This document shows positions 3,372 to 24,021 of a DNA stretch of 64,000 nt, one piece after another; the first letter of the stretch is position 1, and every line of letters begins with the position of its first letter. This stretch comes from Kiritimatiellia bacterium (GTDB taxonomy: Bacteria > Verrucomicrobiota > Kiritimatiellia > RFP12 > UBA1067): NCBI GenBank assembly GCA_017454745.1, contig JAFTCL010000048.1, forward strand, positions 22,534-86,533, in the 5' to 3' direction. Made by a program: the position numbers and the translations under genes. The notes under the pieces were generated by a model. It had not been told where the DNA came from. It was given only the letters and a program-made list of their open reading frames with translations, and did no database searches.

Positions 3372-3419
3372 AGGAGGACAGGGTGGGAGGTACGAGATAG
3401 GGAGGGACGCGCCCCGTCG
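3372..3419 (+). repeat. REP-like G-rich repeat GGACAGGGTGGGAG..AGATAGGGAGGGACGCGCCCCGTCGCGAC
   Basis: The same ~35-nt core recurs at 19141-19170. Its 3' part matches the RAYT-flanking arms GGGAGGGTCGCGCTCCGTCGCGAC at 5266 and 5858. Confidence 0.6.
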
Positions 3420-3572
3420 CGACTCCGGGTGGTCCGCCCGGTCCGGGACCTGTCCAGCGGTGACGGACGGAAACAAATCTCTTCCGCTTTTTCAAGGTCT
3501 GGGTCGGCGACGCCCCGATCCCGGCCGAGCCGAAAATGCCAGGTGAGTTTAGATCATGAGCGAAAGGCATAT

Positions 3573-3601: not shown

Positions 3602-3807
3602 TTGTTCAATGGATTGAGTAAATTTGCTCATTGCGATTGGCAAATGACGAATAGAGGAGTGATCCCAGATTCCTCACTTGGGGGTTTCACGCAAACCCTT
3701 GCCGCTCAGCGTCGCTGTGCCTCTGCGTGAGATAGAAATCCTTGTCTAGAAAGCGTAACCGAGGAATTAAGGTTAATGTCCGCAGAAAGACGACGGAAGG
3801 AGAAACC

Positions 3808-5151
3808 ATGAAAACACCAACGACAAAACGCATGCTCGCCGCAGTCGCGGCGGTAACCTGCATCGTAACAGCCGCCCGCGCCGGCAGCGTTCCGGACCAA
3901 TGCCTGGACGCCTGCACGGGCGGCGAGGGCGCCATCCACGTTCAGGGCTGGGCCTATGACCCCGACGCCTCGTCGCAGTCCATCAATGTCCACGTCTATT
4001 TCTATGCCGACTCGGGCTGCACGATCCAGTACGGGGACGTCCGCATACTCACGGCCAACGTGTCGAGGCCCGACGTGAACCAGGCGAAGGGAATCACGGG
4101 CGACCACGGCTTTGCCGCCGACATCCCCGTCTCCAACGCCGGAGACTACTGGGTCAAGCTCTTCGCCATCGACGCCACCGGCGACGGCAATCCGCAGATC
4201 GGCTAGACGAGAAGCGTGACCGTGACGGCGACCGGCTCGCCGTCCGGCGGCTCGTCGGCGGAATCCGGCTGCACCGTCAAGGTCACGAAGTTCCACCAGT
4301 CGTATCCCTACTCGGGCAGGGCGACGGTCGAATACATGGTCGGCGGGACGCTCCCCGCGAACGCCGTCGCGGAAATTATCCTCAATACCGACGACGCGAC
4401 CGCGACCTTCGTCCAGAGCAACGTCGTCGCGGGCGCGAATACGCACGTGATCGACTTCGCCTCGTCCTTCGGCGGCGCGATGCTGCTCACCAATGCCTCG
4501 TTTGTGGTGACGATCACTGGAGAACGGGCTCTCGGCGGCGTGCAACTTTGGGAGAACGGGCCCTACTGGGCGGAGTGCAACGTGGGTGCCACAAAGCCTG
4601 AAGAATACGGTTACTACTTCTGGTGGGGCGACACGGTGGGCTACAAGCGCGAGAACGACGCCTGGGTTGCAGCGGACGGCTCGACGTCCAGCTTCTCGTT
4701 CAACAGCGACAACACGCCCACCTACGGCAAGGACAACGCGACGCTTCTCTCGGAGGGCTGGATCGACTCGACGGGTAACCTCGTGGCGGCGCACGACGCG
4801 GCGACGGCGCACCTCGGCGCACCCTGGCGAATGCCGACGGACGCGGAGTTCTCCGCGCTCCTCGACAACTGCACCACCGAGTGGACGACGCGGAACGGCG
4901 TATCGGGGCAGCTCGTCACGGGCAAGGGCGCATACGCGGACAAGAGCATCTTCCTTCCTGCGGCCGGCTACGGCAACGACTCGCGCCTCTACGGCCTCGG
5001 CTCGTACGGCTTCTTCTGGTCCTCTACGCCGTATTCGGGCAATTCGAACTACGCGTGGAACCTCTACTTCCTTTCGGGCCACATCGACTGGAGCTACGGC
5101 AGCCGCTACGACGGGGTGTCCGTCCGGCCTGTGCGAGGATTTGCCCAATAG
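3808..5151 (+). pseudogene. Secreted FISUMP-domain (Fibrobacter succinogenes major paralogous domain) protein interrupted by an in-frame TAG at 4204-4206. This may be one gene carrying a nonsense codon or readthrough site, or two ORFs (3808-4206 and 4216-5151, the latter starting at GTG).
   Basis: The N-terminal part has a signal peptide (MKTPTTKRMLAAVAAVTCIVTAARA) and an RBS (GGAAGGAG). The C-terminal part (LWENGPYWAECNVGA...YGYYFWWGD...APWRMPTDAEF...YAWNLYF...GVSVRPV) is the FISUMP fold and lacks a signal peptide of its own. Both parts are in the same frame, separated only by TAG. Confidence 0.55.
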
Positions 5152-5199
5152 CGCGCGAATCTCGGGAACAACCTACGGAGAGCAAGAGAGGCGTTCATT

Positions 5200-5778
5200 A
5201 TGAACAACCGGAAACACGAAGGACATGCGGACGCGACGGAGCGCGTCCCACCCCGGGCGGATGTGGGAGGGTCGCGCTCCGTCGCGACCGCCACCACGCG
5301 CGTCCTGCCCGCACGCAAACACCCTTCGCGCAATTCAATCCTGACAACTTGCGACAACCGGGCTATCATTCTTTTCGTCACGGTGGTTACGTGCAATCGG
5401 CAGTGCGTGTTGGCCGATTGCAAGGTGCAATCGGTTATTCTGGACGTATGGAGAAGGACCAAGGGCTGGATCGTTGGGCGTTATGTGATCATGCCGGACC
5501 ATATCCACTTCTTCTGTGCGCCGACGTGCTATCCGCCGTCCGACTTCCATGCCTGGATGGCGTGCTGGAAACGCATGGTGTCGAACCGCTTTCCTTGCCG
5601 GCATTCGTTGCCGTTGTGGCAAAGGGATTGCTGGGATACGCAGTTGCGCCGCAGCGAGAGCTATGCCGACAAATGGGAGTATGTACGCAACAATCCCATA
5701 CGCAAGAGGTTGACAGAGGATGCGGATTCGTGGCCGTTTCAGGGAGAATTGAATGTTTTGCAGTGGCACGACAGATGA
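5200..5778 (+). mobile_element. REP-associated tyrosine transposase (RAYT), an IS200/IS605-family Y1 transposase. The true start is uncertain because the annotated N-terminus overlaps a REP hairpin.
   Basis: HuH motif VIMPDHIHFF, an N-terminal ILFVTVVTCNRQ (YFVT.CT.NR-like) block, and the catalytic-Tyr region SYADKWEYVRNNPIRKRL. Flanked by palindromic REP arms at 5226-5290 and 5797-5884. Confidence 0.75.
5226..5290. repeat. REP hairpin on the 5' side of the RAYT. Its two arms are GGACGCGACGGAGCGCGTCCC and GGGAGGGTCGCGCTCCGTCGCGACC.
   Basis: Imperfect inverted repeat read directly. The same arms recur on the 3' side. Confidence 0.7.
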
Positions 5779-5796
5779 TGTATGGGATGTGCGGAC

Positions 5797-5884
5797 GCGA
5801 CGGAGCGCGCGTTGGATGGGGGTGGACGCGACGGAGCGCGTCCCTCCCGAGACGTGTGTGGGAGGGTCGCGCTCCGTCGCGACC
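5797..5884. repeat. REP cluster on the 3' side of the RAYT: two GGACGCGACGGAGCGCG arms followed by one complementary arm, GGGAGGGTCGCGCTCCGTCGCGACC.
   Basis: Inverted and direct repeats matching the 5'-side element. This gives the REP-RAYT-REP arrangement of a REPtron. Confidence 0.7.
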
Positions 5885-5913
5885 TATGACAAATAGTAAA
5901 GGACATTAATGCG

Positions 5914-7053
5914 ATGAAGATGAACAATTTGATGAGTTGTAAATTGCTGGTGACGTTGTTGCTGCTGCTGGTGGGGCGAGCCGTTTCGGGCGCGCCGCTG
6001 GCGCGGCAGAGCGGCGCGGTGGGCGTCGTCACCTACGACCCGTCGGAAACGCAGACGACGCCGGTCCCGGTTCCGTATGCGTGGCTGGACGGCTATCCCG
6101 AACTGCTCGCGGGGCAGTCCGGCGACTACGAGGTCGCCGCCAACGCGACGGCGGCGAACGGGCGCAAGGTGTGGGCGTGCTATGTGGTGGGGCTGGATCC
6201 GTCCGATCCGCTTGACAACTTCCGCATCACGCGCTTCTGGATGGACGGCTACATGCCGATGTTCGTGGTGAGCCCCACGACGAACGGAAGCGGCCGTTCG
6301 ATCCTGCCCTACGTGAGGCCGCTCGGCAAGGCGGAACTGACGGGCGCGTGGCTGCACGTGCCCGACGGCGGCAGCCCCGCTTTCCGGTTCTTCGCGGCCG
6401 AGGTCGTGCCGCCGGGATGCGAATCCGCCGTTGACGACGGCGTCCAGCTCTGGGCGGACGGGCCCTACTGGGCGAAGTGCAACGTGGGCGCCGCGGCGCC
6501 AGAGGAATACGGCTGCTACTTCTGGTGGGGCGACACCGTGGGCTACAGGCGCGAGAACGGCGCCTGGGTCGCGGCGGACAGCTCGACGTCCGGTTTCCTG
6601 TTCAACAGCGACAACACACCCACCGACGGCAAGGACGACGCGGCGCTTCTGTCGGCTGGGTATATCGACGCGACCGGCAACCTCGTGGCGGCGTATGACG
6701 CGGCGACGGCGCACCTCGGCTCGCCGTGGCGCATGCCGACGGACGCGGAGCTTTCCGCGCTTATCAACAATTGCACAACCAAGTGGATCACCACCAATGG
6801 CGTGTCGGGGCGGCTTGTCACGGGCAAGGGCGCATACGCGGACAAAAGCATCTTCCTTCCCGCGACCGGCTACGGCGACGGTTCGTCCCTCCTCACCACC
6901 GTCAACGGCTGCTGGTCCTCCACGCCAGCCGGTTCGGACAGGGCGTGGCACCTCTTTTTATCTTCGGTCTCCATCGGTGCGTTCGGCTTCGGCCGGTCCG
7001 ACGGGAACCGTTACAAAGGGTTTCCCGTCCGTCCCGTCCGGGACGCCGACTAG
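5914..7053 (+). CDS. Secreted FISUMP-domain protein, a paralog of 3808-5151
   Basis: Signal peptide MKMNNLMSCKLLVTLLLLLVGRAVSGA. The C-terminal ~150 aa are ~85% identical at the nucleotide level to 4541-4985 (LWADGPYWAKCNVGA...YGCYFWWGD...SPWRMPTDAEL...GFPVRPV). Confidence 0.75.
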   Translation: MKMNNLMSCKLLVTLLLLLVGRAVSGAPLARQSGAVGVVTYDPSETQTTPVPVPYAWLDGYPELLAGQSGDYEVAANATAANGRKVWACYVVGLDPSDPLDNFRITRFWMDGYMPMFVVSPTTNGSGRSILPYVRPLGKAELTGAWLHVPDGGSPAFRFFAAEVVPPGCESAVDDGVQLWADGPYWAKCNVGAAAPEEYGCYFWWGDTVGYRRENGAWVAADSSTSGFLFNSDNTPTDGKDDAALLSAGYIDATGNLVAAYDAATAHLGSPWRMPTDAELSALINNCTTKWITTNGVSGRLVTGKGAYADKSIFLPATGYGDGSSLLTTVNGCWSSTPAGSDRAWHLFLSSVSIGAFGFGRSDGNRYKGFPVRPVRDAD

Positions 7054-7138
7054 CGCGCGAACCGCGCGGAATGCCCACGGCGAGGAACGATGAACGGGCT
7101 GATGAGTTGCTGATGGGGCGGCGGAGTCCGCAAATACC

Positions 7139-7184
7139 GCAACTGCCACAATGAAAACGCCACAACTGCCACAATGAAAACGCC
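7139..7184 (+). repeat. Tandem direct repeat, 2 x 23 nt (C[G/A]CAACTGCCACAATGAAAACGCC)
   Basis: Two adjacent, almost identical 23-mers in the 530-nt region upstream of fabH. Possibly an operator or regulator-binding site. Confidence 0.7.
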
Positions 7185-7586
7185 GCAAGTGACATAATGC
7201 TTGCAATGCCGATGGGGATATGCTATCATTTTTGCCATGAAACAGTAAGGAATCGGTCATCATGAAAAAAACAGCTTACACGATTATGGTTGCGGTTGCG
7301 ATGGCGGCGAGAAGCACCGCGAGCGCCGCAGTGTTTGTTTCGCGGAGATGACGTACAACCCCGACGGAACCATCCGGCAGCTGCTCTGGTGGGCCGACAT
7401 CCAATAGCGCGTCCTATACACGAGGTACCGCAATCATGCGGCCGGGCGGGTTCCCGCTGCCGGAATTTCACACCCGAAAAATTGATTGGGGAACCTCCAG
7501 TAATTTCGGTATTGAATTTTTGCCCCGGTTTTGATATGATATGGCTTTCTTTTGGGATAGGTGTGTTGATCGAACAGGGACACAGT

Positions 7587-8570
7587 ATGAGCGGACAGAA
7601 TCTTTCGGCAAAAATCGCCGGTACCGGGATGGCGGTGCCCGCGAAAGTTTGGGATAATTTTAAGTTGGCGACTTTGGTGGAAACCAGCGACGAGTGGATT
7701 ACCCAGCGAGTCGGCATCAAGGAACGCCGCATCGCCGAAGATAACGAGTACACCTCCGATTTTTCCACCAAGGCCGCGCTGCAGGCGCTGGAGCGGGCCA
7801 ACATGACCGCCGACCAGCTGGACCTCATTCTGGTGGCGACCTCCACCCCGGACATGATCTTGCCCAACACCGCCTGCCTCGTCCAGAAGAACATCGGCGC
7901 CGTCAACGCCGCCGCCCTGGACATCTGCAGCGCCTGCTCCGGATTCATTTACGGGTCGGCAATCGCCTGGGGAATGATAAAGTCCGGCATCATGAAGAAC
8001 ATCCTGTTGATCGGCGTCGAGCTGAACAGCCGCATCCTCAACTGGAAAGACCGCGGAACCTGCATCCTCTTCGGTGACGGCGCCGGTGCGGCGGTGTGGA
8101 CGGCCTGCGACGCCTCGGAGGGCGGAATGCTCGGCTTCGTGATGGGCGCGGACGGCAACTACGCCGACCTGCTGACGCTGCCGAACAGCGGTTGCCGGAA
8201 ATACCCGGAGTACGACGGCACCTACATCACCATGCACGGGAACGAGACCTTCAAACAGGCGGTGCGCACCATGAACGAATGCGCCCTCGAAGTGCTGGAG
8301 AAGGTCGGGCTGAAACCGGAAGACGTTGACCTGCTGATCCCGCACCAAGCGAACATCCGCATTATCGAGGCGGTCCAGAAACGGCTGAACCTGCCGCCGG
8401 AAAAAGTTTTCGTGAATATCCAGAAATACGGCAACACCACCGCCGGCACCATACCGATCGCGCTGCACGAGGCACTGGACCAGGGTCTCGTAAAGAAAGG
8501 CGACATCCTGCTGATGGATGCCTTCGGCGCCGGACTGACCTGGGGCGCGTTTGTGATGAAATGGGCATAA
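7587..8570 (+). CDS. fabH: 3-oxoacyl-[ACP] synthase III (FabH)
   Basis: Start MSGQNLSAKIAGTGMAVP. Carries the FabH signatures SDEWITQRVGIKERR, active-site Cys in ACSGF, HQANIRII and GNTTAGTIP. The ORF as tracked from 7290 has a spurious N-terminal extension. Confidence 0.85.
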   Translation: MSGQNLSAKIAGTGMAVPAKVWDNFKLATLVETSDEWITQRVGIKERRIAEDNEYTSDFSTKAALQALERANMTADQLDLILVATSTPDMILPNTACLVQKNIGAVNAAALDICSACSGFIYGSAIAWGMIKSGIMKNILLIGVELNSRILNWKDRGTCILFGDGAGAAVWTACDASEGGMLGFVMGADGNYADLLTLPNSGCRKYPEYDGTYITMHGNETFKQAVRTMNECALEVLEKVGLKPEDVDLLIPHQANIRIIEAVQKRLNLPPEKVFVNIQKYGNTTAGTIPIALHEALDQGLVKKGDILLMDAFGAGLTWGAFVMKWA

Positions 8571-8855: not shown

Positions 8856-10472
8856 ATGAAATTGCCGATTCTGCCGTTTCTGGTTTTTGCCGCCGGTATC
8901 GCGGCGGCGGCGCCGTCGTTTAAAGCAGAAAAACCCTATCCGGCGATAGGCCTGAAATTCAAGACCTTGAGCGGCGGCAATCCCGAACCGCTCAAACAGG
9001 CGCAAACGCACACTTACACCCGCACCGACAACCAAACCGGCGCCACCGACGAGCTGGAACTGTTCAGCGCCCGCGAACTGTGGTACGCCACGCAGCATCT
9101 CGGGCAGTGGCGCGACAAGGCGGGGAACCTGATGATTCTCGGGCGGGCCGACTACGCATTGCCAAAGGTACGCGTAACCGCCGGAACACACGTAAGCCGC
9201 GAAGATTTCGAACAGGCGGCGGCGGATAACAATCTGCGAATCGGACAAGTCGATATCACCGACAACCGGCTGCTTTCTTGGGTGGGGGATTTCGCCGACG
9301 CCAAACCCGGCGAACCGGAAAAGATCCGCTGTCCCTTCCGGATTCGCGATGCCGCATTCGTCCCCACCGACCATCCCCAGCAGGTTGCCTGCCTTTTCCG
9401 GATCAAATCGCAGCTTCCCGCCGCCGATGACTGGTATTGCCTGATTATCGAGATTGCCGACGGCACCCCGACCGCCAAGGTGCGCAAAGACATCGAAACC
9501 CAGTTCCTCGCCACCATCTCCGCCATTCCGCGCTCATCCACTACAACCCGCGCCGACAACAAGGAGCTGAAGACCTTTACTCCCGGAACGCGGACTCCGG
9601 AAAAGATCGCCGACCATCCCAGCCGCGACGCCGCTAAAAAAAGCATTGCCAACATGGCTGGCTGGTGGTACGCCGAAACCGCGGACTACATATTCCTCTC
9701 TGACGTTCGCAGTTCGCTCGGCAAAAATCTGGTTAAGACCTTCCAAACCATACTTCCCGACTACCGCAAGGCGCTCAAAAAGCTGGTACCCCCGTTTGTT
9801 GAGCAGACCGACGTGAACGTGGTGCGGATATTCGAGAACGAAGCCGACTACAAACGCCATGTCGGGCCTAAACACGAATTCAGCGACGGCATCTGGAATC
9901 CGGCGCTTCGCGAACTGGCAATCCTATCCTGCGGCAACAAAAAAGCCGAAGAGACCATGGACATCATGCGCCACGAAGGGTTCCACCAGTACCTCTTTTA
10001 CGCCGCCGATAAAATCATCGTCTCGACCTGGCTCAACGAGGGCTACGCCTGTTTCTGCGAAGGCGCGGTAATAAAGGGCGGACGGGTCTCGTTCCCGGAG
10101 ACCGGACGGGTTGACCAGCTGTTGCGCGAACTGCCCGCCGCCACCGCGTTGATCCCCAAACTGATAAAAACCAGCCACGAGGGTTTTTACGCCGGAAACG
10201 ACCAGCAGATCAGCTTGAAATACGCCACCGCGTGGGGAATTGTGTACTTTCTGTGCAAGGGGGTCCCCTCCAACCGCAAATACGAAGCATACGCCACGAT
10301 TTTGCCCGACTACTGGAAAACGCTAAAGGAAACCCGTGATTGCGAAAAGGCCAACGCGGCCGCGTTTGAGGGCGTGAGCATGGAGAAATTCCAAAAGGAT
10401 TTCTCCGAATTCTGGCAAAAAGGCCGCAACGCCGCCCGCAGGATCGACCCGCTGGCGGCGAACCCAAAATAA
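8856..10472 (+). CDS. Secreted putative zinc-metallopeptidase-like protein (HExxH motif; resembles DUF1570)
   Basis: Signal peptide MKLPILPFLVFAAGIAAAAP. HExxH appears as MRHEGFHQY, with NEGYACFCEG downstream. The RIFENEADY block is typical of DUF1570 proteins. Confidence 0.5.
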   Translation: MKLPILPFLVFAAGIAAAAPSFKAEKPYPAIGLKFKTLSGGNPEPLKQAQTHTYTRTDNQTGATDELELFSARELWYATQHLGQWRDKAGNLMILGRADYALPKVRVTAGTHVSREDFEQAAADNNLRIGQVDITDNRLLSWVGDFADAKPGEPEKIRCPFRIRDAAFVPTDHPQQVACLFRIKSQLPAADDWYCLIIEIADGTPTAKVRKDIETQFLATISAIPRSSTTTRADNKELKTFTPGTRTPEKIADHPSRDAAKKSIANMAGWWYAETADYIFLSDVRSSLGKNLVKTFQTILPDYRKALKKLVPPFVEQTDVNVVRIFENEADYKRHVGPKHEFSDGIWNPALRELAILSCGNKKAEETMDIMRHEGFHQYLFYAADKIIVSTWLNEGYACFCEGAVIKGGRVSFPETGRVDQLLRELPAATALIPKLIKTSHEGFYAGNDQQISLKYATAWGIVYFLCKGVPSNRKYEAYATILPDYWKTLKETRDCEKANAAAFEGVSMEKFQKDFSEFWQKGRNAARRIDPLAANPK

Positions 10473-10493: not shown

Positions 10494-11645
10494 ATGAAAG
10501 AAATCTCCGCCGCGCCGGCAAAGCGGCAGATTGTCTGGCTGGACGCAGCCAGATTCTTGGCGATGTTGTTTGTGTGCGTGTCGCACGCCGGCGACACGTT
10601 TAACTGCAACCCGCCCGCCGGGGAAGAGGCGCTGTACAATTTCTGGGGGGCGATCTGGGGGTCGCTCTCCCGCTTTTGCGTGCCGGTGTTCGCCATGATC
10701 ACCGGGTATCTGCTGTTGCCGGTGCGGACCGGCCACGCCGAGTTTTACAAAAAACGCATCGGGCGGGTGTTGCCGCCGTTCCTTTTCTGGTCGGTCATCT
10801 ACTGCCTGCTGCCGGGGGTTATCGGACTGATCGGGGGCGACCTTAAGACCCTCAAAGTGCTCATCCCGTTCGCCGAAGAACAGCCGTTGACTTTCGCCGC
10901 CTGTCTGCCGAATATCGCCAAGATCCTGTTCAACTTCAACTGGATCACCACCCATATGTGGTACGTCTATATGCTGATCGGCCTCTATTTGATTCTGCCG
11001 GTGGTTTCCGCCTGGTATCATACCGCGTCGGAACGCGCCAAATGGGGGTTCGTCGGGCTGTGGGGAGTAACGCTCTTCATCCCCTACCTGCGCCACCTGC
11101 TCGGCGGGATGAACCTTTGGGGGGTGTGCGAATGGAACGACACCGGAATGTTCTACGGTTTCGCCGGTTTTACCGGCTACCTGCTGTTCGGTTCGCTGCT
11201 CGGACGCATGAAACCCTGGTCCTGGGGCAAGACCGCCGCCATCGCCGCGCCGCTTTTCATCGCCGGTTTTCTGACGGTGTTTTTCGGGTTCCGCCACTTC
11301 CAGCTCGCCAACCCCGAATACAACGCGGACTGGGAACTTTTCTGGTGGTACTGTTCGCCGCAGGTCGCGGCAATGTCCGCTGCCGTGTTCCTTTTCGCCA
11401 AGAAATTCGACCGCCTTCCACCCCGTTTGGCGGGATTTCTCGGGGAGGTCAACCGCTGCGGGTTTGGCGTGTACCTTTGCCACTACGCGCTAATCGGGCT
11501 TTGCAACCGGTTTTTGGTCCGGCCGCTGCGTCTGCCTGCGTGGCTGCAACTGCCGCTGATGGCCGCGCTGGCCTTTATCGCGGCGTTTTCCCTAATCCAT
11601 TTCGTCCGGCGCATACCAGGCGTCGGGCGTAAAATCACAGGCTGA
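10494..11645 (+). CDS. Membrane acyltransferase of family 3 (OafA/YrhL-like)
   Basis: N-terminus WLDAARFLAMLFVCVSHAGD and roughly 10 predicted transmembrane segments. This is the typical acyltransferase-3 architecture. Confidence 0.75.
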   Translation: MKEISAAPAKRQIVWLDAARFLAMLFVCVSHAGDTFNCNPPAGEEALYNFWGAIWGSLSRFCVPVFAMITGYLLLPVRTGHAEFYKKRIGRVLPPFLFWSVIYCLLPGVIGLIGGDLKTLKVLIPFAEEQPLTFAACLPNIAKILFNFNWITTHMWYVYMLIGLYLILPVVSAWYHTASERAKWGFVGLWGVTLFIPYLRHLLGGMNLWGVCEWNDTGMFYGFAGFTGYLLFGSLLGRMKPWSWGKTAAIAAPLFIAGFLTVFFGFRHFQLANPEYNADWELFWWYCSPQVAAMSAAVFLFAKKFDRLPPRLAGFLGEVNRCGFGVYLCHYALIGLCNRFLVRPLRLPAWLQLPLMAALAFIAAFSLIHFVRRIPGVGRKITG

Positions 11646-11654
11646 GGTACCGCA

Positions 11655-13988
11655 ATGTCCAACACCGCCTTCAACCGCGTTTTAATCCGAATCGCCGCGT
11701 TGGGTTTCGCCGCCGCCGCGTTGGCGGACCCGGAACCCGCCGCGCAGACATTCGGCCTTTCAGTAACCCCGTCCGGCTCTACCAACGCCGTCGCGCTGCC
11801 GTTCCAAATGCCGCTCGCCTTCCCCGGTGAAGCCAGCTGCACTCTGGCCGCGACCAACACCTCGTTTTGGCTGGACGCCGACTCGTTGCGGCTGGTTCTG
11901 GCGTGGCCGGAGGGTGCCCCGCGCTACTCCGGCGGGTTGGTGTGGCTAAAAGACCGCGACGACATCTGGCACCAGCAGGTTTTCGCAAAACATCTCTCCG
12001 CCGGCGCCACCAACGTCATCGAAATCCCATTCGGGGCAACGGCGGCGGGCTGGACCACGCCCGGCCATTCGCTGGCTTGGCACTACCGCGCCCGGCTGAA
12101 CCCGCAGTCGATTGGCTTCCGGGTATTCGCGGACAACACCTTCACCGGCCGTTGCGAAGTGGTGTCCGCGACCTTGACCGTCAAACCGCCGGCGGGGGTG
12201 CCGCAGATTATGCGCGTCAGAGCGCTGACCTCCGCACCGCGGGTTCTGGAGAAATTTGAACTGCGGTTTGACCTTCCGGACCGTTACGCCAACCCCTTCG
12301 ACCCCGAAACCATCGATGCCGGGGCAAAAATAATCACCCCGTCCGGCACCACCAACACCATCACCGCCTTCTACTATCAGCCTTACTACCGGCTGGAAGA
12401 CGAACTCGGCGAACCGGTCGAACCCGCCGGCCGACCGGAGTGGCGCATTCGCTACTGCCCGCGCGAGCCGGGAGAATACCGCGTGTCGCTCTTCGCCAAA
12501 GACCGCTGGGGCGAAGCGTCGGCGGAATCGGCCGCCACCTTCTCGGCCGCACCGGCGGGGACCGACCCGATGCGGTTTGTGCGGGTCTCGGCAAAAGACC
12601 GCCGGTTTTTCGAGTTCGACAACGGTGACCTTTACTACCCGATCGGCCACAACACTCGGTCCGCCAACGATGCCCGCATGAACGACAAATTCCCGTGGAT
12701 TTTCCGCAAGGAAGAGAGCACCGCAGTCTATCGCCGCTACTTCCAGCAAATGCAGGCGTCGGGCGAAAACTGGGCGGAGGTGTGGATGAGCGCGTGGTCG
12801 CTGGGTCTGGAATGGACAGAAGGCATTGGCGGCTACCACGGCGCAGGCGACTACCACTCCGGCAACGCCTGGGAGCTGGACCGGGTGCTGGAACTGGCCG
12901 AAAAACACCGCATCCACATCAACCTGGTGCTGAACTACCATGGGCGGATGAGCAGCTGGTGCGATCCGGAATGGCATCTCCACCCGTATAACAAGCGGAC
13001 TCCCGGCGGATGGCTGGAAATGCCGCTGCAATTCTTTGACGATCCCAAGGCCGTGGCGATGCAAAAGCGCTTTATCCGCTACACCCAGGCCCGTTGGGGA
13101 TGGTCTCCGGCCATCTTCGGCTACGAACTGTGCAGCGAGCTTAATCTGACCGGGCACGAATCGCACCACCGCACCAATTTCGACCCCCGCGTGGTTAACT
13201 GGTGCAAGGTGATGAGCGAATACTTTGAGGAGATCGACCCCTACCGGCACCTTGTATCGGCGCACGTCTCCAACGACTATAACTTCATCTGCCCGGAACA
13301 CGCCAAACTTCCGACGCTCGACTTCAACCCGCTCGACGCCTACCACCACACCCAGCCGGAACGCATCATCGCGCTGGCCGCCGAAACCGCCAACTTCGGT
13401 TTGCAGTTCGACAAGCCGATTCTGATCACCGAGTTTGGCGGCTCCCCGATGGCGGCGGGAAAGGAGCACTTGAAGATCGAGCTGCACGCCGCGCTTTGGA
13501 CCGGGGTGTGCGTACCGCTCGCCGGAACCCCGATGTTCTGGTGGTGGCGGGTGGTGGAGGAGAACAACCTTTACCCGTACTACGCCGCCGTCGCCAAATT
13601 CATGGAGGGGGAGGATCCCCGCGACCCAGCCGCGAAAATGGTCAGGCCCGCCATCGGCGCCGTGGAAGGGAAAACCGCCCCGCAGGCCGCCAACTACCTT
13701 TGCATCGGCACGGTGTCGCCGCGTTCCGCCCGCTGTTACGTCTATCCCAAATCCTTCCCGCGCCCGCCCGCAAAACCGATCGCCGCGGAATTCCTGACCG
13801 CCACCATCAAGGATTTGGAGCCGGGAACCTACCGGGCGGAGTTCTTCGACACCCGCACCGGGAAATCCATCGCCAAGCGCGATACCCGCGCGGAAAACGG
13901 AACGCTGGTGCTGTCGGTTCCCAAATTCAGCAATGACTGCGCCTTCAAATTGCACCAAGTCACCGCCATTGCCCCGAAAGCGAACTGA
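11655..13988 (+). CDS. Secreted putative glycoside hydrolase with a clan GH-A-like TIM barrel (DUF5060/DUF4038-like)
   Basis: Signal peptide. Candidate acid/base motif YELCSELN and nucleophile motif PILITEFGG. At 777 aa it carries extra N- and C-terminal beta-rich domains. Confidence 0.45.
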   Translation: MSNTAFNRVLIRIAALGFAAAALADPEPAAQTFGLSVTPSGSTNAVALPFQMPLAFPGEASCTLAATNTSFWLDADSLRLVLAWPEGAPRYSGGLVWLKDRDDIWHQQVFAKHLSAGATNVIEIPFGATAAGWTTPGHSLAWHYRARLNPQSIGFRVFADNTFTGRCEVVSATLTVKPPAGVPQIMRVRALTSAPRVLEKFELRFDLPDRYANPFDPETIDAGAKIITPSGTTNTITAFYYQPYYRLEDELGEPVEPAGRPEWRIRYCPREPGEYRVSLFAKDRWGEASAESAATFSAAPAGTDPMRFVRVSAKDRRFFEFDNGDLYYPIGHNTRSANDARMNDKFPWIFRKEESTAVYRRYFQQMQASGENWAEVWMSAWSLGLEWTEGIGGYHGAGDYHSGNAWELDRVLELAEKHRIHINLVLNYHGRMSSWCDPEWHLHPYNKRTPGGWLEMPLQFFDDPKAVAMQKRFIRYTQARWGWSPAIFGYELCSELNLTGHESHHRTNFDPRVVNWCKVMSEYFEEIDPYRHLVSAHVSNDYNFICPEHAKLPTLDFNPLDAYHHTQPERIIALAAETANFGLQFDKPILITEFGGSPMAAGKEHLKIELHAALWTGVCVPLAGTPMFWWWRVVEENNLYPYYAAVAKFMEGEDPRDPAAKMVRPAIGAVEGKTAPQAANYLCIGTVSPRSARCYVYPKSFPRPPAKPIAAEFLTATIKDLEPGTYRAEFFDTRTGKSIAKRDTRAENGTLVLSVPKFSNDCAFKLHQVTAIAPKAN

Positions 13989-13991
13989 ACC

Positions 13992-14966
13992 ATGTCCGCC
14001 CGCCCAACCACCTTCGTCGCTTTAGTGCTGCTGGCCGCCGGAGCGGTCGCGCAGTCGGTAGGCGGCATTGGGGGTATGAGCGTGTCCGACGACCGGGTCC
14101 GACGCCGCTCCGTGCCCGACCCGGTTGCCGCCAGCGGGGAACTGCGGATGCGGAGTCTGCAAATTACCGTATCGCCGCCGCAAATGTACCTCAACGTGGG
14201 CACCGACCGGCGGTTCGGCCCCTACGCGCTTTCGGACGGCACGGAGATCGGCGTCGCCCAGCCGCCGTACAAACTAACCGCCGTGCGGGACGGCAGTTTT
14301 TCCGTGCGGGGGCCGGATCAAACGGTTTACGGCCCGTTCAGCAGCGCCGACGGCACCGCGATAACGATCGGCCGCCAGAGCGCCGTTGTGCTGCGGCCGA
14401 CCGTCGACCTCGCGGTGCGGTTGGAATGGAACGGCATGAAACGGCAGAAACCGGTCATCGGCGTCGCCGTCGCCAACCAGCCGCTTTATCAGGCGCTTTA
14501 CGAACTTCGGGACCACTTCGCGACGGTGATAAACCGCGTAAATTACGAAACCGCCGACCGGGAGATACAAGGCGTGCCGCGCCGCATCCACTACCCCAAC
14601 GGACGCAGCAACGCCGGGAACGTCGTGTCGGTTTCCAAGCGCGACAAGGAAAACTCCGAATGGCAGGCCGAACGCAGTTGCGTCAACGCGGTGGAAAGGC
14701 TTTTTAACCAACGTTTCCATATCAAGTCCTACGCGTTAACCGACCGTTTCACCAGCCACTTCCGGATGCCGGCGGGACGGTATCTGCTTTGCGCCATGCA
14801 GCGTTACAGCGACCCAAGGCAATCATCCACCTTCGCCGGATCAAAAACCGCCATCTGGTGGACGGAATTCACTTTCGACGGACAAAGCGGACTAAGCCTG
14901 GAGTTGACGCCTGAAAACGCCGTCAGCTGGAGAGAAATTTTCCCGTTCCAAACAATCAGCGAATAA
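13992..14966 (+). CDS. Secreted hypothetical protein
   Basis: Signal peptide MSARPTTFVALVLLAAGAVAQS. 324 aa with no recognisable motifs. Lies directly downstream of 11655-13988 on the same strand. Confidence 0.5.
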   Translation: MSARPTTFVALVLLAAGAVAQSVGGIGGMSVSDDRVRRRSVPDPVAASGELRMRSLQITVSPPQMYLNVGTDRRFGPYALSDGTEIGVAQPPYKLTAVRDGSFSVRGPDQTVYGPFSSADGTAITIGRQSAVVLRPTVDLAVRLEWNGMKRQKPVIGVAVANQPLYQALYELRDHFATVINRVNYETADREIQGVPRRIHYPNGRSNAGNVVSVSKRDKENSEWQAERSCVNAVERLFNQRFHIKSYALTDRFTSHFRMPAGRYLLCAMQRYSDPRQSSTFAGSKTAIWWTEFTFDGQSGLSLELTPENAVSWREIFPFQTISE

Positions 14967-22200: not shown

Positions 22201-24021
22201 CCCAACACGCTGGCACCGGCAATCGCCACGCTGGCCGGGGCGGACGTGCGGATGGGCTTGGCGCAGACGGCCCCGAACACCGCCAACGTCACGCTGGCCA
22301 ATCCGGACGGCACCTCCGTGCTGACGCTTGCAAGCGGCGCGACGCTTCCGGTGCCGGACAACTCCCTGGCCATCGGCGGCGGCGGCGAATTGCGCGTGGA
22401 AACGGGCGGCACACTCGCGCTGGACGTCACCGGTAACAACCCGACCCCGCGCCTGACCGTGGCAGACGGCGGCAAACTTACCGTTGACGGCGGCACCGTG
22501 AAGTTGACGAAATCTCCCGTCTCCATCAACGTTTTCGGCAGCGAAGGCCGTACCGGCACGCTGGAAATCGTTTCCGGTCGAATGGAAACCACAGTCAGCA
22601 ACACCGGACAGGACGGCGTGGCCGTGCTGAAGGGCGGACTCCTGCGAATGACCGGGGGAAATCTCACGCTTAACCGCACTGGGAGCTATAACAACGGCGG
22701 CAATCTTGTGGATGACGGCGGAGCGGTAGACCTTTCCGGAGACGCGGCTCTGATTGCGCACAAGACCGGAATCACCATCGGTTCCGGCACGTTCCGCATG
22801 GCCGATGCCTCCCACATCGACTTCCTTACGGACACGGGCAAGGATGACACTGTCTATAGAGTTCTATTGCAGCCGGGCGTTGGGCGGGAAACGGTCATGA
22901 CGGTCGACGATTCCGCAACGATCACCCCCGATCCGCTTTCCGGCCAGATGCAGTTCTTCGTCGGCTACCAGAACGCAGGATCGCGCACCATCCTGAACTG
23001 GAATTCGACCCAAACGCTGAAAGCTTTGCGTACGTTTGCCGTCGGTTTTGTCAAAGGATACGGCGAACTGAATATATCGCGGGGACAGATCATCGGCGGA
23101 TACAACGGATTCCGCGTCGCGCAGAACTACGCAAATCCGTCCGCCGACGCATGCGTTACGGGTGTGGTGAACGTAATCGGCGGCAGCGTGCGTAACATAG
23201 ACACCGAAAACGACTCCTCGACGTTCCAAGGGCTGATCATCGGTTCTGGCGGATGCGTAAAGATCGCCAACCCCGGCTATTTCTGGGGCACGCTGAACCT
23301 GTACGACGGCGGCGCGGTGACGAACTCCAGCGAATACTTCGGCATCGGCATCGGTTACGCGGAGGGCGTCCTGAACCAACACGGCGGCGAGGTAATCCAC
23401 AACAACAGCTCCAATAACGAATTCGTGATCGGGGCGTGGGGCGGCAAAGGCTCAATGGTCATGGATGGCGGCAGGGCGTGGTCGAAACGCGACGTCTATG
23501 TGGGCGGCGCCACAACCAACAACCTGTACTACAAGCGCTGGAAACTCTACACCCAATGCCCGGTGGACAACCACTGCGCCACCGGACTCCTGCGCGTGGC
23601 GGCGGGCAGATTCGACACGGCGGGCTCCATCTGGGTCAGCCAGGACGGACAGGGGACATTGGAAATCGGCCCCGCCGGACAGGTCTCCGCGAACAACGTC
23701 ATCCTGACCAACACGGTCGCGGAGCTGACCGGCACCGTTGACCTCGCCGCAAAACTCGCCTTCGTTCTGGACGAGGACGGCGCCGGGCTGCTTACCGTGA
23801 CCAACGCGCTGACCATCGGCCAGGGCGTGACCATGGAGGTGGATGCCACCGAAAGGAAAGGGCGGGGCGGAAACATCCCCCTCATCCGCTTTGGGGAGAG
23901 CGAGGGCGAGTTCAGCGCCATCACCGTCAAAGGCGGCGGCACGGTCAAAAAGTTGACCGTTGACGGGATGTCGGGTTACTGGTACCAATTCAGCCCCGGT
24001 ACCATCATCACCATCCTATAG
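19297..24021 (+). CDS. Giant secreted surface protein: three tandem LamG-like (concanavalin A-like, Laminin_G_3) modules, followed by a beta-helix / autotransporter-associated-like repeat region
   Basis: Signal-like N-terminus. The LamG signature DLTGNGYDG / DLTGNGYNG / DLSGNGNDA appears three times, each with a downstream RFYDRALTAEEVAVNHAVDAIRY-type block. The modules recur at DNA level with ~1026-bp periodicity (19381, 20407, 21433). The C-terminal third is rich in G/T/N beta-strand repeats. Confidence 0.7.
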   Translation: MMNGFLRFVQTGCLVFTSLILLMADNANGLTAYSYVQKGLAACWDGIDNAGSGSHDSSVRTWKDLTGNGYDGILSDIVSWEDNCWSTAVSGRPVKLPNSFSYLTAARTFTVDCAFSPSRAEKSASARETVFGQYDGSYNGTFNIEHNHNNHPAGCLRFYMNKGQIDKYSTGVVLANQNATVALTVTPAKQVLYIDGASDTVSTTSLSTLYSSKDTYIGGETSRESFGFRGRYYGCRFYDRALTAEEVAVNHAVDAIRYWGASPNDFTLSGGYCFDAEGELLIDVTANVTDGGGKVCVGTGGDASDAISATINQNGTESVTFTAVPDEGYEFATWVLEDGAMLDEGSSLTDPTISIYAKWPLAVTATFREKGKLTAYSYVQKGLVACWDGIDNAGTGEHDEETRVWKDLTGNGYNGTLGSDVTWAENGWQNEANEKPVSLGYGFSTVTEPCNFTIDFTVTPSRAPCREIFFGQFGWDYGSINLERKANGRLRCYYNYDEVDFESTQAIAANETASFTVTTTPGKQAVWKNGVKDVEQTDKAISAMSGGKPTYIGADGTGNSNRKSFNFHGTYHGCRVYDRVLTDAEIAVNHAVDAIRYRGASAGSFTLSGGYSFNNSGNLLIDLTATASAGGKVCSGTADVAAATAVATISQDGTVSAAFTAVPDNGYEFVAWDVENGGTIIGGSTSDATINISARWPLVLTAVFRPARAAFPATTVADYVKDGLVMWFDGVDNAGAGRHDGAAAAWADLSGNGNDAVAVGPGLGWADNSCTNAIDGKQTGEAGLFRLNGAVAPVIANRTFTLEMAIRPGFVKNRKVLFGSYDGASGFNLEENDSGMFRVFYNNTPNVVTTVPMVKDEEAVFSVVSTADGVAVYKNGVPVYRYEGAIDAKGTIAALEDSVYYLGGERQREGFTYRGAIYSFRLYSRALTSAEVLRNTRLDQQRLLANTTLWSDATGGSWMDSASWSGGLPNTLAPAIATLAGADVRMGLAQTAPNTANVTLANPDGTSVLTLASGATLPVPDNSLAIGGGGELRVETGGTLALDVTGNNPTPRLTVADGGKLTVDGGTVKLTKSPVSINVFGSEGRTGTLEIVSGRMETTVSNTGQDGVAVLKGGLLRMTGGNLTLNRTGSYNNGGNLVDDGGAVDLSGDAALIAHKTGITIGSGTFRMADASHIDFLTDTGKDDTVYRVLLQPGVGRETVMTVDDSATITPDPLSGQMQFFVGYQNAGSRTILNWNSTQTLKALRTFAVGFVKGYGELNISRGQIIGGYNGFRVAQNYANPSADACVTGVVNVIGGSVRNIDTENDSSTFQGLIIGSGGCVKIANPGYFWGTLNLYDGGAVTNSSEYFGIGIGYAEGVLNQHGGEVIHNNSSNNEFVIGAWGGKGSMVMDGGRAWSKRDVYVGGATTNNLYYKRWKLYTQCPVDNHCATGLLRVAAGRFDTAGSIWVSQDGQGTLEIGPAGQVSANNVILTNTVAELTGTVDLAAKLAFVLDEDGAGLLTVTNALTIGQGVTMEVDATERKGRGGNIPLIRFGESEGEFSAITVKGGGTVKKLTVDGMSGYWYQFSPGTIITIL

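Follow-up and report, generated by a model that had tools for sequence, protein, structure and literature searches.

Proteins of the DUF1566/DUF823/Fib_succ_major type, such as LdtA of Legionella, form an established class of targets of diversity-generating retroelements (DGRs), with a variable repeat (VR) at the C-terminus and an initiation of mutagenic homing (IMH) sequence (PMC5758913). A GC inverted repeat is needed for efficient homing in these targets, and remote DGR targets lying more than 100 kb from the reverse transcriptase (RT) have been documented (PMC5758913). Here this class is compared with a pair of genes, named A and B, which were found on either side of an open reading frame (ORF) for a REP-associated tyrosine transposase (RAYT; REP, repetitive extragenic palindrome) in 64,000 nucleotides of a Kiritimatiellia bacterium (positions 22,534 to 86,533 of the forward strand of contig JAFTCL010000048.1, assembly GCA_017454745.1). 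This whole stretch is called the window below, and coordinates given with no other locus name are its own. Genes A and B are tandem paralogs that probably serve, or once served, as targets of a DGR of the DUF1566 lectin-fold class ('CLec2'). The DGR is a known system and nothing at the locus lies outside known biology.

The closest described systems are the CLec2 targets (category d, Wu et al. 2018, PMC5758913), among them LdtA of Legionella pneumophila, with which the two genes share a C-terminal VR, a C-type-lectin fold and weak, mixed DUF1566/FISUMP scores. As in the CLec2/LdtA class, they encode secreted or surface proteins with AAY-to-NNY changes, an IMH-like end and a GC inverted repeat just past the VR. 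Unlike that class, the targets in the window have no adjacent avd gene, template repeat (TR) and RT; they are two in tandem, with unrelated N-terminal modules and a nonsense codon in one of them, and their host is a metagenome-assembled genome (MAG) of the Kiritimatiellae. A literature search found no paper combining 'diversity-generating retroelement' with 'Kiritimatiellae'. Multiple remote targets are also served by the DGR of Treponema denticola; its target TvpA, however, is of the FGE-sulfatase-type class, and a trans-acting DGR is hypothetical in the present case. In contrast to the Bordetella phage BPP-1 DGR and its target Mtd, the context here is chromosomal and non-phage, the domain family is a different one and there is no local cassette. 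The Lcl protein of Legionella has, to our knowledge, not been reported as a DGR target itself. Unlike Lcl, with its C-terminal domain (PDB 8q4e; Pfam PF07603), the proteins described here have no collagen-like region.

The two genes are laid out as follows.

3808..4206, + strand: 5' part of gene A; signal peptide and N-terminal domain, closed by an in-frame TAG at 4204-4206, in the frame shared with 4216-5151
4216..5151, + strand: 3' part of gene A (NCBI IJU44_09045); middle domain and Lcl_C/DUF1566 lectin-fold domain
5914..7053, + strand: gene B (NCBI IJU44_09055); signal peptide, B-type N-terminal module and Lcl_C lectin-fold domain; protein P0001 is 100% identical

Their products are 100% identical to MBQ9431682 (gene A, IJU44_09045) and MBQ9431684 (gene B, IJU44_09055), both recorded as 'hypothetical protein' from a Kiritimatiellae MAG. 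Pfam PF07603 (Lcl_C/DUF1566) scores 40.6 bits with gene A, above the gathering threshold of 34.9, and 26.3 bits with gene B, below it; the same family appears in the precomputed annotation of the proteins P0001 and P0086 alike. The initial annotation had named the domain FISUMP, an assignment that was not sustained: the FISUMP models stay below threshold for gene A (TIGR02145, 29.3 vs a cut-off of 41.65; PF09603, 20.8 vs 33.9) and give no match to gene B, and the domain scores as Lcl_C/DUF1566. In both genes the encoded fold is a C-type lectin fold that displays the variable residues. The homolog family is large, with 1385 of the 8000 scored candidates reaching E <= 1e-5, and a search of genome contigs with gene B returned distant relatives only (<=57% identity) and no strains.

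The TAG codon in gene A separates a 132-aa signal-peptide ORF from a 309/311-aa ORF. In the syntenic locus L001 (GCA_002309765.1) the ortholog is intact, with 442 aa and a serine at the corresponding codon. The TAG is also found in the strain contig L030 and is, therefore, a real nonsense mutation. Given this nonsense codon and the broken hairpin behind the gene (see below), gene A looks like a decaying target.

The main diversifying feature of the locus is a DGR-type VR just past the end of the direct repeat in each gene, which the initial annotation missed.

4956..5144, + strand: VR of gene A; homologous to DGR TRs, with A-to-N differences at 4969-5117 and an IMH-like conserved end at 5118-5144
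6858..7042, + strand: VR of gene B; more diverged and with indels, A-to-N differences at 6871-7000

Beyond positions 4992 (gene A) and 6894 (gene B) the tails are hypervariable in both genes and in all relatives. In a codon alignment of 10 tails, the first two positions of many codons are occupied by three or four different bases with no change at the third, and these variable codons (AAC, GAC, CAC, AGC, CTC, TAC etc.) are interspersed with wholly invariant ones. The nonsynonymous divergence (dN) exceeds the synonymous divergence (dS) in many pairs of tails, as between window gene A and L001_A (dS 0.15, dN 0.42). A TR motif predicted from the invariant tail positions (GCRTGGAAYCTSAAYTTYAAYTCS) was used to scan a metagenome collection. 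The scan returned 18 loci, mostly with AAC-rich versions of the tail (peptide ..GNGNDSNLNNPGSNGNYWSSTPNSDNSNNAWNLNFNSSNFNRNNNNRYNGQSVRPVR), and 9 of the 18 run straight into ORFs with the DGR-type RT motifs GLPIGNLxSQLFSNIYL...YGRYVDD.

The TRs available for comparison with genes A and B are heterologous, coming from related metagenomic contigs of other organisms, and are not cognate. Compared with the TR of L021, gene A differs at 27 of 52 TR adenines vs 12 of 137 other sites (p 6.6e-10), the adenines being replaced by T, G or C; compared with the TR of L035, the counts are 27 of 52 vs 9 of 137 (p 2.7e-11). For gene B they are 32 of 44 vs 18 of 106 with the L021 TR (p 1e-10), in an alignment that required four gaps, and 33 of 49 vs 27 of 127 with the L035 TR (p 3e-8). 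When eight VRs were aligned gap-free, 49 of the 50 TR-adenine columns varied vs 57 of 129 others (p 6e-13), and at least three different bases were seen in 31 of 50 vs 12 of 129, respectively. The syntenic pair of window gene A and L001_A differs at 30 of 50 adenine sites vs 14 of 129 others (p 6e-11). Both VRs terminate 5-30 nt short of the stop codon and have a conserved IMH-like end (..SVRPVR).

Textbook cassettes with the same type of tail were found among the relatives. L035-L037 are one chromosomal locus in three samples, in the order target, hairpin, Avd-like gene, TR and RT. The target is a 328-aa Lcl_C protein with its VR at 9033-9223 and a stop followed at once by CGCGCGAATTGCGCGCG; the Avd-like gene (163 aa) precedes the TR at 10090-10280, after which the RT begins. 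TR and VR of this cassette differ at 29 of 53 adenines vs 4 of 138 other sites, the four all lying at the IMH end. Of the other loci, L016 carries avd-TR-RT and L012 carries target-avd-TR-RT. The Kiritimatiellae RT MBR1921566 was also found, from a different assembly than the MAG of the window.

The DNA right behind the stop codons was compared in the same way.

5152..5166, + strand: degenerate GC-rich inverted-repeat remnant after the stop of gene A; -2.2 kcal/mol, no better than shuffles
7054..7068, + strand: GC-rich hairpin right after the stop of gene B (CGCGCGAACCGCGCG); 6-bp stem, -10.2 kcal/mol

GC hairpins of -9.5 to -10.4 kcal/mol follow the stops of L001_A, L001_B, L002_B, L004_A and window gene B, and that of gene B matches the hairpin after the VR of the canonical L035 target in position and in sequence type. 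Moreover, the orthologs of gene B in L004 and L002 are followed by a spacer like the one that leads into avd in L035 (82% and 74%, respectively) and by remnants of avd itself, amounting to the first 10 codons in L004 and 3 codons in L002, after which the sequence is unrelated. Because of these avd remnants, a DGR cassette appears to have once adjoined the gene B orthologs and to have been lost later.

Taken together, Kiritimatiellae of gut and rumen widely carry DGR targets of the DUF1566 type along with the corresponding cassettes, and in these bacteria secreted lectin-like binding proteins likely matter for attachment to glycans or other cells. Read in this way, the locus changes from a deletion-prone duplication into a pair of unannotated hypermutation targets. 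It also offers a case of DGR targets with no local cassette, rebuilt by recombination and invaded by REP/RAYT, which informs on the birth, orphaning and decay of target families.

Two side observations concern the cassettes. In L027 (260-730), short AAAAGTTGAAAGGTTG-type repeats and a fragment resembling the N-terminus of a RAYT have taken the place of avd between target and TR-RT, and no more than the final ~20 codons of the ORF in the avd region survive. Many of the DGR RT proteins in the databases (P0121-P0240) carry N-terminal 'Lcl_C' and 'DUF8237' (PF26707) matches because their predicted genes run across the TR and on into the RT, and PF26707 seems to model the tail encoded by VR and TR.

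Upstream of the VRs, the two genes share a direct repeat, which ends at 4992 and 6894.

4533..4992, + strand: direct repeat copy 1; conserved lectin-fold scaffold including the type-1 loop, 84.1% identical to copy 2 with no gap
6435..6894, + strand: direct repeat copy 2; 84.9% identical to the domain of L001_A, about the same as to copy 1

The initial annotation had described direct repeats of about 450 bp and 85% identity in two genes with unrelated N-terminal halves, with a RAYT and REP element between the copies, and this description holds. Local alignment of the two genes gives a single ungapped block of 460 bp with 387 identical positions (84.1%), found by the repeat search from the seed 4533-4832/6435-6734 (85%, spacing 1902 bp); the N-termini show no relationship (BLASTP E 0.28 and 12), and the RAYT ORF (5200-5778) lies with two REP hairpins between the copies. 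With gaps allowed, the homology reaches 5086/6976 (554 bp at 80.5%), and it picks up again at the 3' ends to continue about 40 nt beyond the stops (5143-5185 vs 7045-7087, 72%). The repeat is present in two copies only in the 64-kb window. The copies share their codon register (121 of 153 aa identical), their mismatches fall on codon positions 1/2/3 in the numbers 22/15/36, and the divergence between them corresponds to a dS of 0.42 and a dN of 0.12 (dN/dS 0.28). The longest exact runs between them are 21, 24 and 29 bp. The repeat itself was also considered as a TR/VR pair and rejected, its 73 mismatches being free of adenine bias (23 A, 20 G, 18 C, 12 T).

For the scaffold part, all pairs among the copies of the window, L001, L002 and L003 are 80-87% identical with a dS of 0.3-0.7, and the window's own pair falls within this range (84%, dS 0.47). 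Gene A of the window is nearer to L002_B (87%) and gene B nearer to L001_A (86%). At the protein level, the repeat region of gene B is 77-80% identical to the A-type domains of many genomes, with gene A of the window no closer than these, and a segment of 37 residues is identical in 14 family members of all types. Since the window pair is no closer than copies from other genomes, the 84% identity between A and B reflects conservation across the family. Thus, the repeat is the scaffold-coding part of a lectin-like domain, held at about 80-87% DNA identity clade-wide by purifying selection. Intragenomic gene conversion as the means of keeping A and B alike was rejected, within-genome similarity not being in excess. 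A divergence of about 16% strongly suppresses RecA recombination. The repeat is consequently a poor RecA substrate, given this divergence and identical runs of at most 29 bp.

Comparison with related loci indicates how the tandem has changed. L001 is syntenic with the window and has the same order of A then B. The flanking genes of the two are 95.5-96.1% identical (dS 0.06-0.19, dN about 0.01), whereas the A-B locus (3774-7053) has a DNA identity of 84-86%, with a dS of 0.29-0.50 and a dN of 0.14-0.22, i.e. 2-3 times and 12-20 times the respective flank values. Because the A-B locus is so much more diverged from L001 than its flanks, the comparison points to allele replacement or recombination at the locus, besides the changes in the VRs. 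In L002 and L004, too, an A-type gene precedes a B-type gene, with 37-40 bp between them and in other genomic contexts. The tandem is therefore old and conserved, being present in L001, L002 and L004 as well as in the window.

In the family as a whole, the loop after the FWWGDTVGY motif is of at least three length and sequence types. Among 120 homologs, all six combinations of the two N-terminal types (An, Bn) with the three loop types (L1, L2, L3) were found, the A-type N-terminus occurring with these loops in 20, 1 and 4 proteins and the B-type in 4, 12 and 20, respectively. Judging by these sequences, the family is a mosaic in which N-terminal modules and loops would recombine between paralogs. 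To this extent the suggestion in the initial annotation that domains of surface proteins are shuffled was right as a general idea, and the 3' flank of gene B carries what may be the footprint of an old unequal exchange. The N-terminus of gene B is 82% identical to that of the syntenic L001_B, yet it has an A-type loop where L001_B has the long type-3 loop, and its tail is closest to yet other proteins. The combination of a B-type N-terminus with a type-1 loop is shared by P0004, P0007 and P0008, so the event that made gene B a hybrid is old.

7069..7115, + strand: copy of the A-to-B spacer and remnant of a B-type gene start (ATG at 7089; ATGAACGGGCTGATGAGTTGCTGA); also picked up by the repeat search

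The 60 nt past the stop of gene B read as a copy of the A-to-B spacer and then the opening ~27 nt of a B-type gene (ATGAACGGGCTGATGAGTT..), with 74% identity to the stretch of L002 from the stop of A to the start of B. If the domain repeats of A and B had undergone unequal exchange, the series A, hybrid B and second B could have resulted, and a later loss of the second B would have left the present layout 3' of gene B.

The elements upstream of gene A and in the A-to-B spacer are the following, the two hairpins being given with no strand.

3400..3423, + strand: solo REP half-site lying 5' of gene A; differs from the REP 24-mer at 2 positions
5167..5185, + strand: what is left of the ancestral spacer between A and B (..ACGGAGAGCAA); matches the spacers of L002 and L004, which have no REP
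5200..5778, + strand: putative RAYT ORF; 72.8 bits with NCBIfam REP_Tyr_transpos (NF047646), below the cut-off of 80
5229..5289: left REP hairpin, a REPIN-like doublet; 89% complementary, inside the first 30 codons of the RAYT ORF
5824..5884: right REP hairpin; 92% complementary

The two 61-nt REP hairpins that flank the RAYT are 90% identical to each other. The translation of the ORF contains the HUH (DHIHFF) and Y (EYVRNNP) motifs, and its score with Pfam Y1_Tnp is 17.4 (cut-off 23). The locus resembles REPIN/RAYT systems in having a putative RAYT with both motifs between two REP hairpins, and a relative with a solo hairpin at the same site. It differs from them in that there are few REPs, all of them at a single locus of the 64 kb instead of being dispersed, that the left hairpin lies inside the RAYT ORF and that the NCBIfam score is below cut-off. 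The REP 24-mer has 5 matches in the window vs 0.01 expected, all at the A-B locus. REP sites were located at 3400, 5230-5288 and 5825-5883 in the window, at 6477-13250 in L001 and at 363-423 and 1476 in L012. Those of the window and L001 are confined to the A-B locus, each behind an Lcl_C 3' end, with none in the window's other ~60 kb; in L012, the same REP family is found inside the DGR cassette. The A-B spacer of L001 has a single REP hairpin and no RAYT, at the same site and with the same left and right flanks as in the window; in L002 and L004, the spacer (37-40 bp) is free of REPs. The REP-RAYT-REP unit thus entered the spacer later, and it either shrank to a solo hairpin in L001 or grew in the lineage of the window.

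As drawn, the RAYT ORF begins upstream of the left hairpin, which is thereby translated as codons 10-30. Its ATGAACAACCGGAAAC leader also precedes the solo hairpins of L001, and there is no ATG, GTG or TTG start just 3' of the left hairpin, the next one being the GTG at 5383. In L030 (3893-4005, corresponding to the window from 5260 onward), the strain contig departs from the window inside the left REP hairpin and runs on into another gene, whose leader is B-like (..LARQCGAVGVVTYD) before the sequence becomes unrelated; this reflects an alternative junction or else a faulty assembly at the REP.

Several observations weigh against genes A and B being DGR targets. The hairpin of gene A is broken, and the z-scores of the hairpins are weak (-1.4 to -2.2), owing to the shortness and high GC content of the sequences. 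Mismatches at sites other than adenine amount to 7-9% in gene A and 17-21% in gene B vs 3% in a cognate pair, which is due to the test TRs coming from other organisms, and the VR of gene B has indels relative to every TR found. In the window, neither blastn nor nhmmer with a tail profile detected anything TR-like, and the search for a TR was equally negative in the first ten loci, including the syntenic L001; one candidate, at 6203-6397 of L001, was rejected as a truncated VR copy that is not AAC-rich. The RT motif scan was negative in the window and in L001-L010 and positive in the 9 TR-bearing loci. Furthermore, the protein variants P0241-P0245 and the strain contigs L029-L031, which are 99.7-99.96% identical, have identical VRs; with near-identical strains carrying identical VRs there is no sign of ongoing diversification, and the locus looks static at present. 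An alternative proposal is that A and B are ordinary paralogs shaped by purifying and diversifying selection on the proteins together with GC-biased codon usage, with no retroelement involved. The conserved scaffold, with its 37-aa segment shared by 14 proteins, would fit this proposal, as would the preference for NNC codons in a high-GC genome, the missing RT and TR in the window and the static VRs of the strains. It does not account, however, for an independently found TR that predicts which nucleotides vary (49 of 50 A sites vs 57 of 129 others), for the same tail type in textbook target-avd-TR-RT cassettes, for the conservation of a non-coding hairpin and spacer along with the tail, or for avd remnants beside the orthologs of gene B. 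We thus regard this proposal as very unlikely.

In the initial annotation, the repeat was put down to a duplication or gene conversion of recent date, which would leave RecA a live substrate for deletion or for the exchange of cassettes. The two copies do exist and have the same orientation, the homology between A and B continues into non-coding DNA past both stops, and gene B with its A-type loop, A-type 3' flank and remnant of a B start records that an exchange happened at some time. A recent date is nonetheless contradicted by the dS of 0.42 and the longest identical run of 29 bp, by the fact that the window pair (84%) is less alike than window A with L002_B (87%) or window B with L001_A (86%), by the equal distance (77-80%) of the gene B protein from the A-type domains of many genomes, by the tandems of L001, L002 and L004, and by the occurrence of a B-type N-terminus with a type-1 loop in P0004, P0007 and P0008, which makes the event an old one. 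As for a live substrate, neither deletion of the interval between the copies nor chimeric A/B genes were found in the three strain contigs L029 (99.96% identity), L030 (99.9%) and L031 (99.7%), or in the 96%-identical relative L001. This explanation is accordingly very improbable. That REP or RAYT created or maintains the repeat, for instance by REP-mediated duplication or mobilisation of a domain cassette, is extremely improbable, despite the position of all REP sites of window and L001 downstream of Lcl_C 3' ends at this one locus and despite the same REP family inside the L012 cassette. The tandems of L002 and L004 have REP-free spacers of 37-40 bp, from which it follows that the duplication predates the REP, and at the spot of the window's RAYT, L001 has a solo REP hairpin. 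The spacer-REP blocks of L001 share their junction, suggesting that REPs were co-duplicated with gene ends and were not the driver. For these reasons, a role of the RAYT as the maker of the repeat was rejected.

In the history favoured here, that of a DGR target pair, A and B would be secreted proteins in which differing N-terminal modules are joined to the same C-type-lectin-fold domain. We infer from the adenine pattern that a DGR diversified the two genes, copying a TR by means of an error-prone RT that would have randomised adenines and so turned AAY codons into NNY. The ..SVRPVR end, the stop and the GC hairpin would be the counterparts of the IMH and inverted repeat by which DGR targets are recognised, and the end of the direct repeat would coincide with the start of the VR in each gene. 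The diversifying element, which is absent from the window, would be remote or lost. Recombination among paralogous domains may then have rebuilt the locus, leaving gene B as a hybrid whose loop and 3' flank are both of the A type, and the REP-RAYT-REP unit would have been inserted into the A-B spacer afterwards. A broader scheme can be imagined, in which Lcl_C genes of gut and rumen Kiritimatiellae are diversified at two levels, by a trans-acting DGR working on dispersed paralogs and by swapping of modules, loops and tails, with REP/RAYT possibly exploiting or mobilising the hairpin and IMH of DGR target ends. In ~85 kb of the window/L001 species pair, REP/RAYT are found at Lcl_C 3' ends only. 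This scheme is speculative and we consider it rather unlikely.

The A-B locus is, finally, a hot spot of insertion and rearrangement. L001 has extra content at 5559-8475 and 11344-14147, comprising an AT-rich block, two genes (one ATPase_2, one AAA_14/DUF4143), four REP hairpins and the truncated third VR copy (6203-6397), which has a spacer and a REP to itself. A glycoside hydrolase gene (GH43), intact in L001 (13273-14147), was deleted in the lineage of the window, since just its first ~50 nt are left at 7260-7310 and ~824 bp are missing. Between the remnant behind gene B and the next gene, positions 7132-7200 hold three tandem 23-nt units (AAATACCGCAACTGCCACAATGA and two variants of it).

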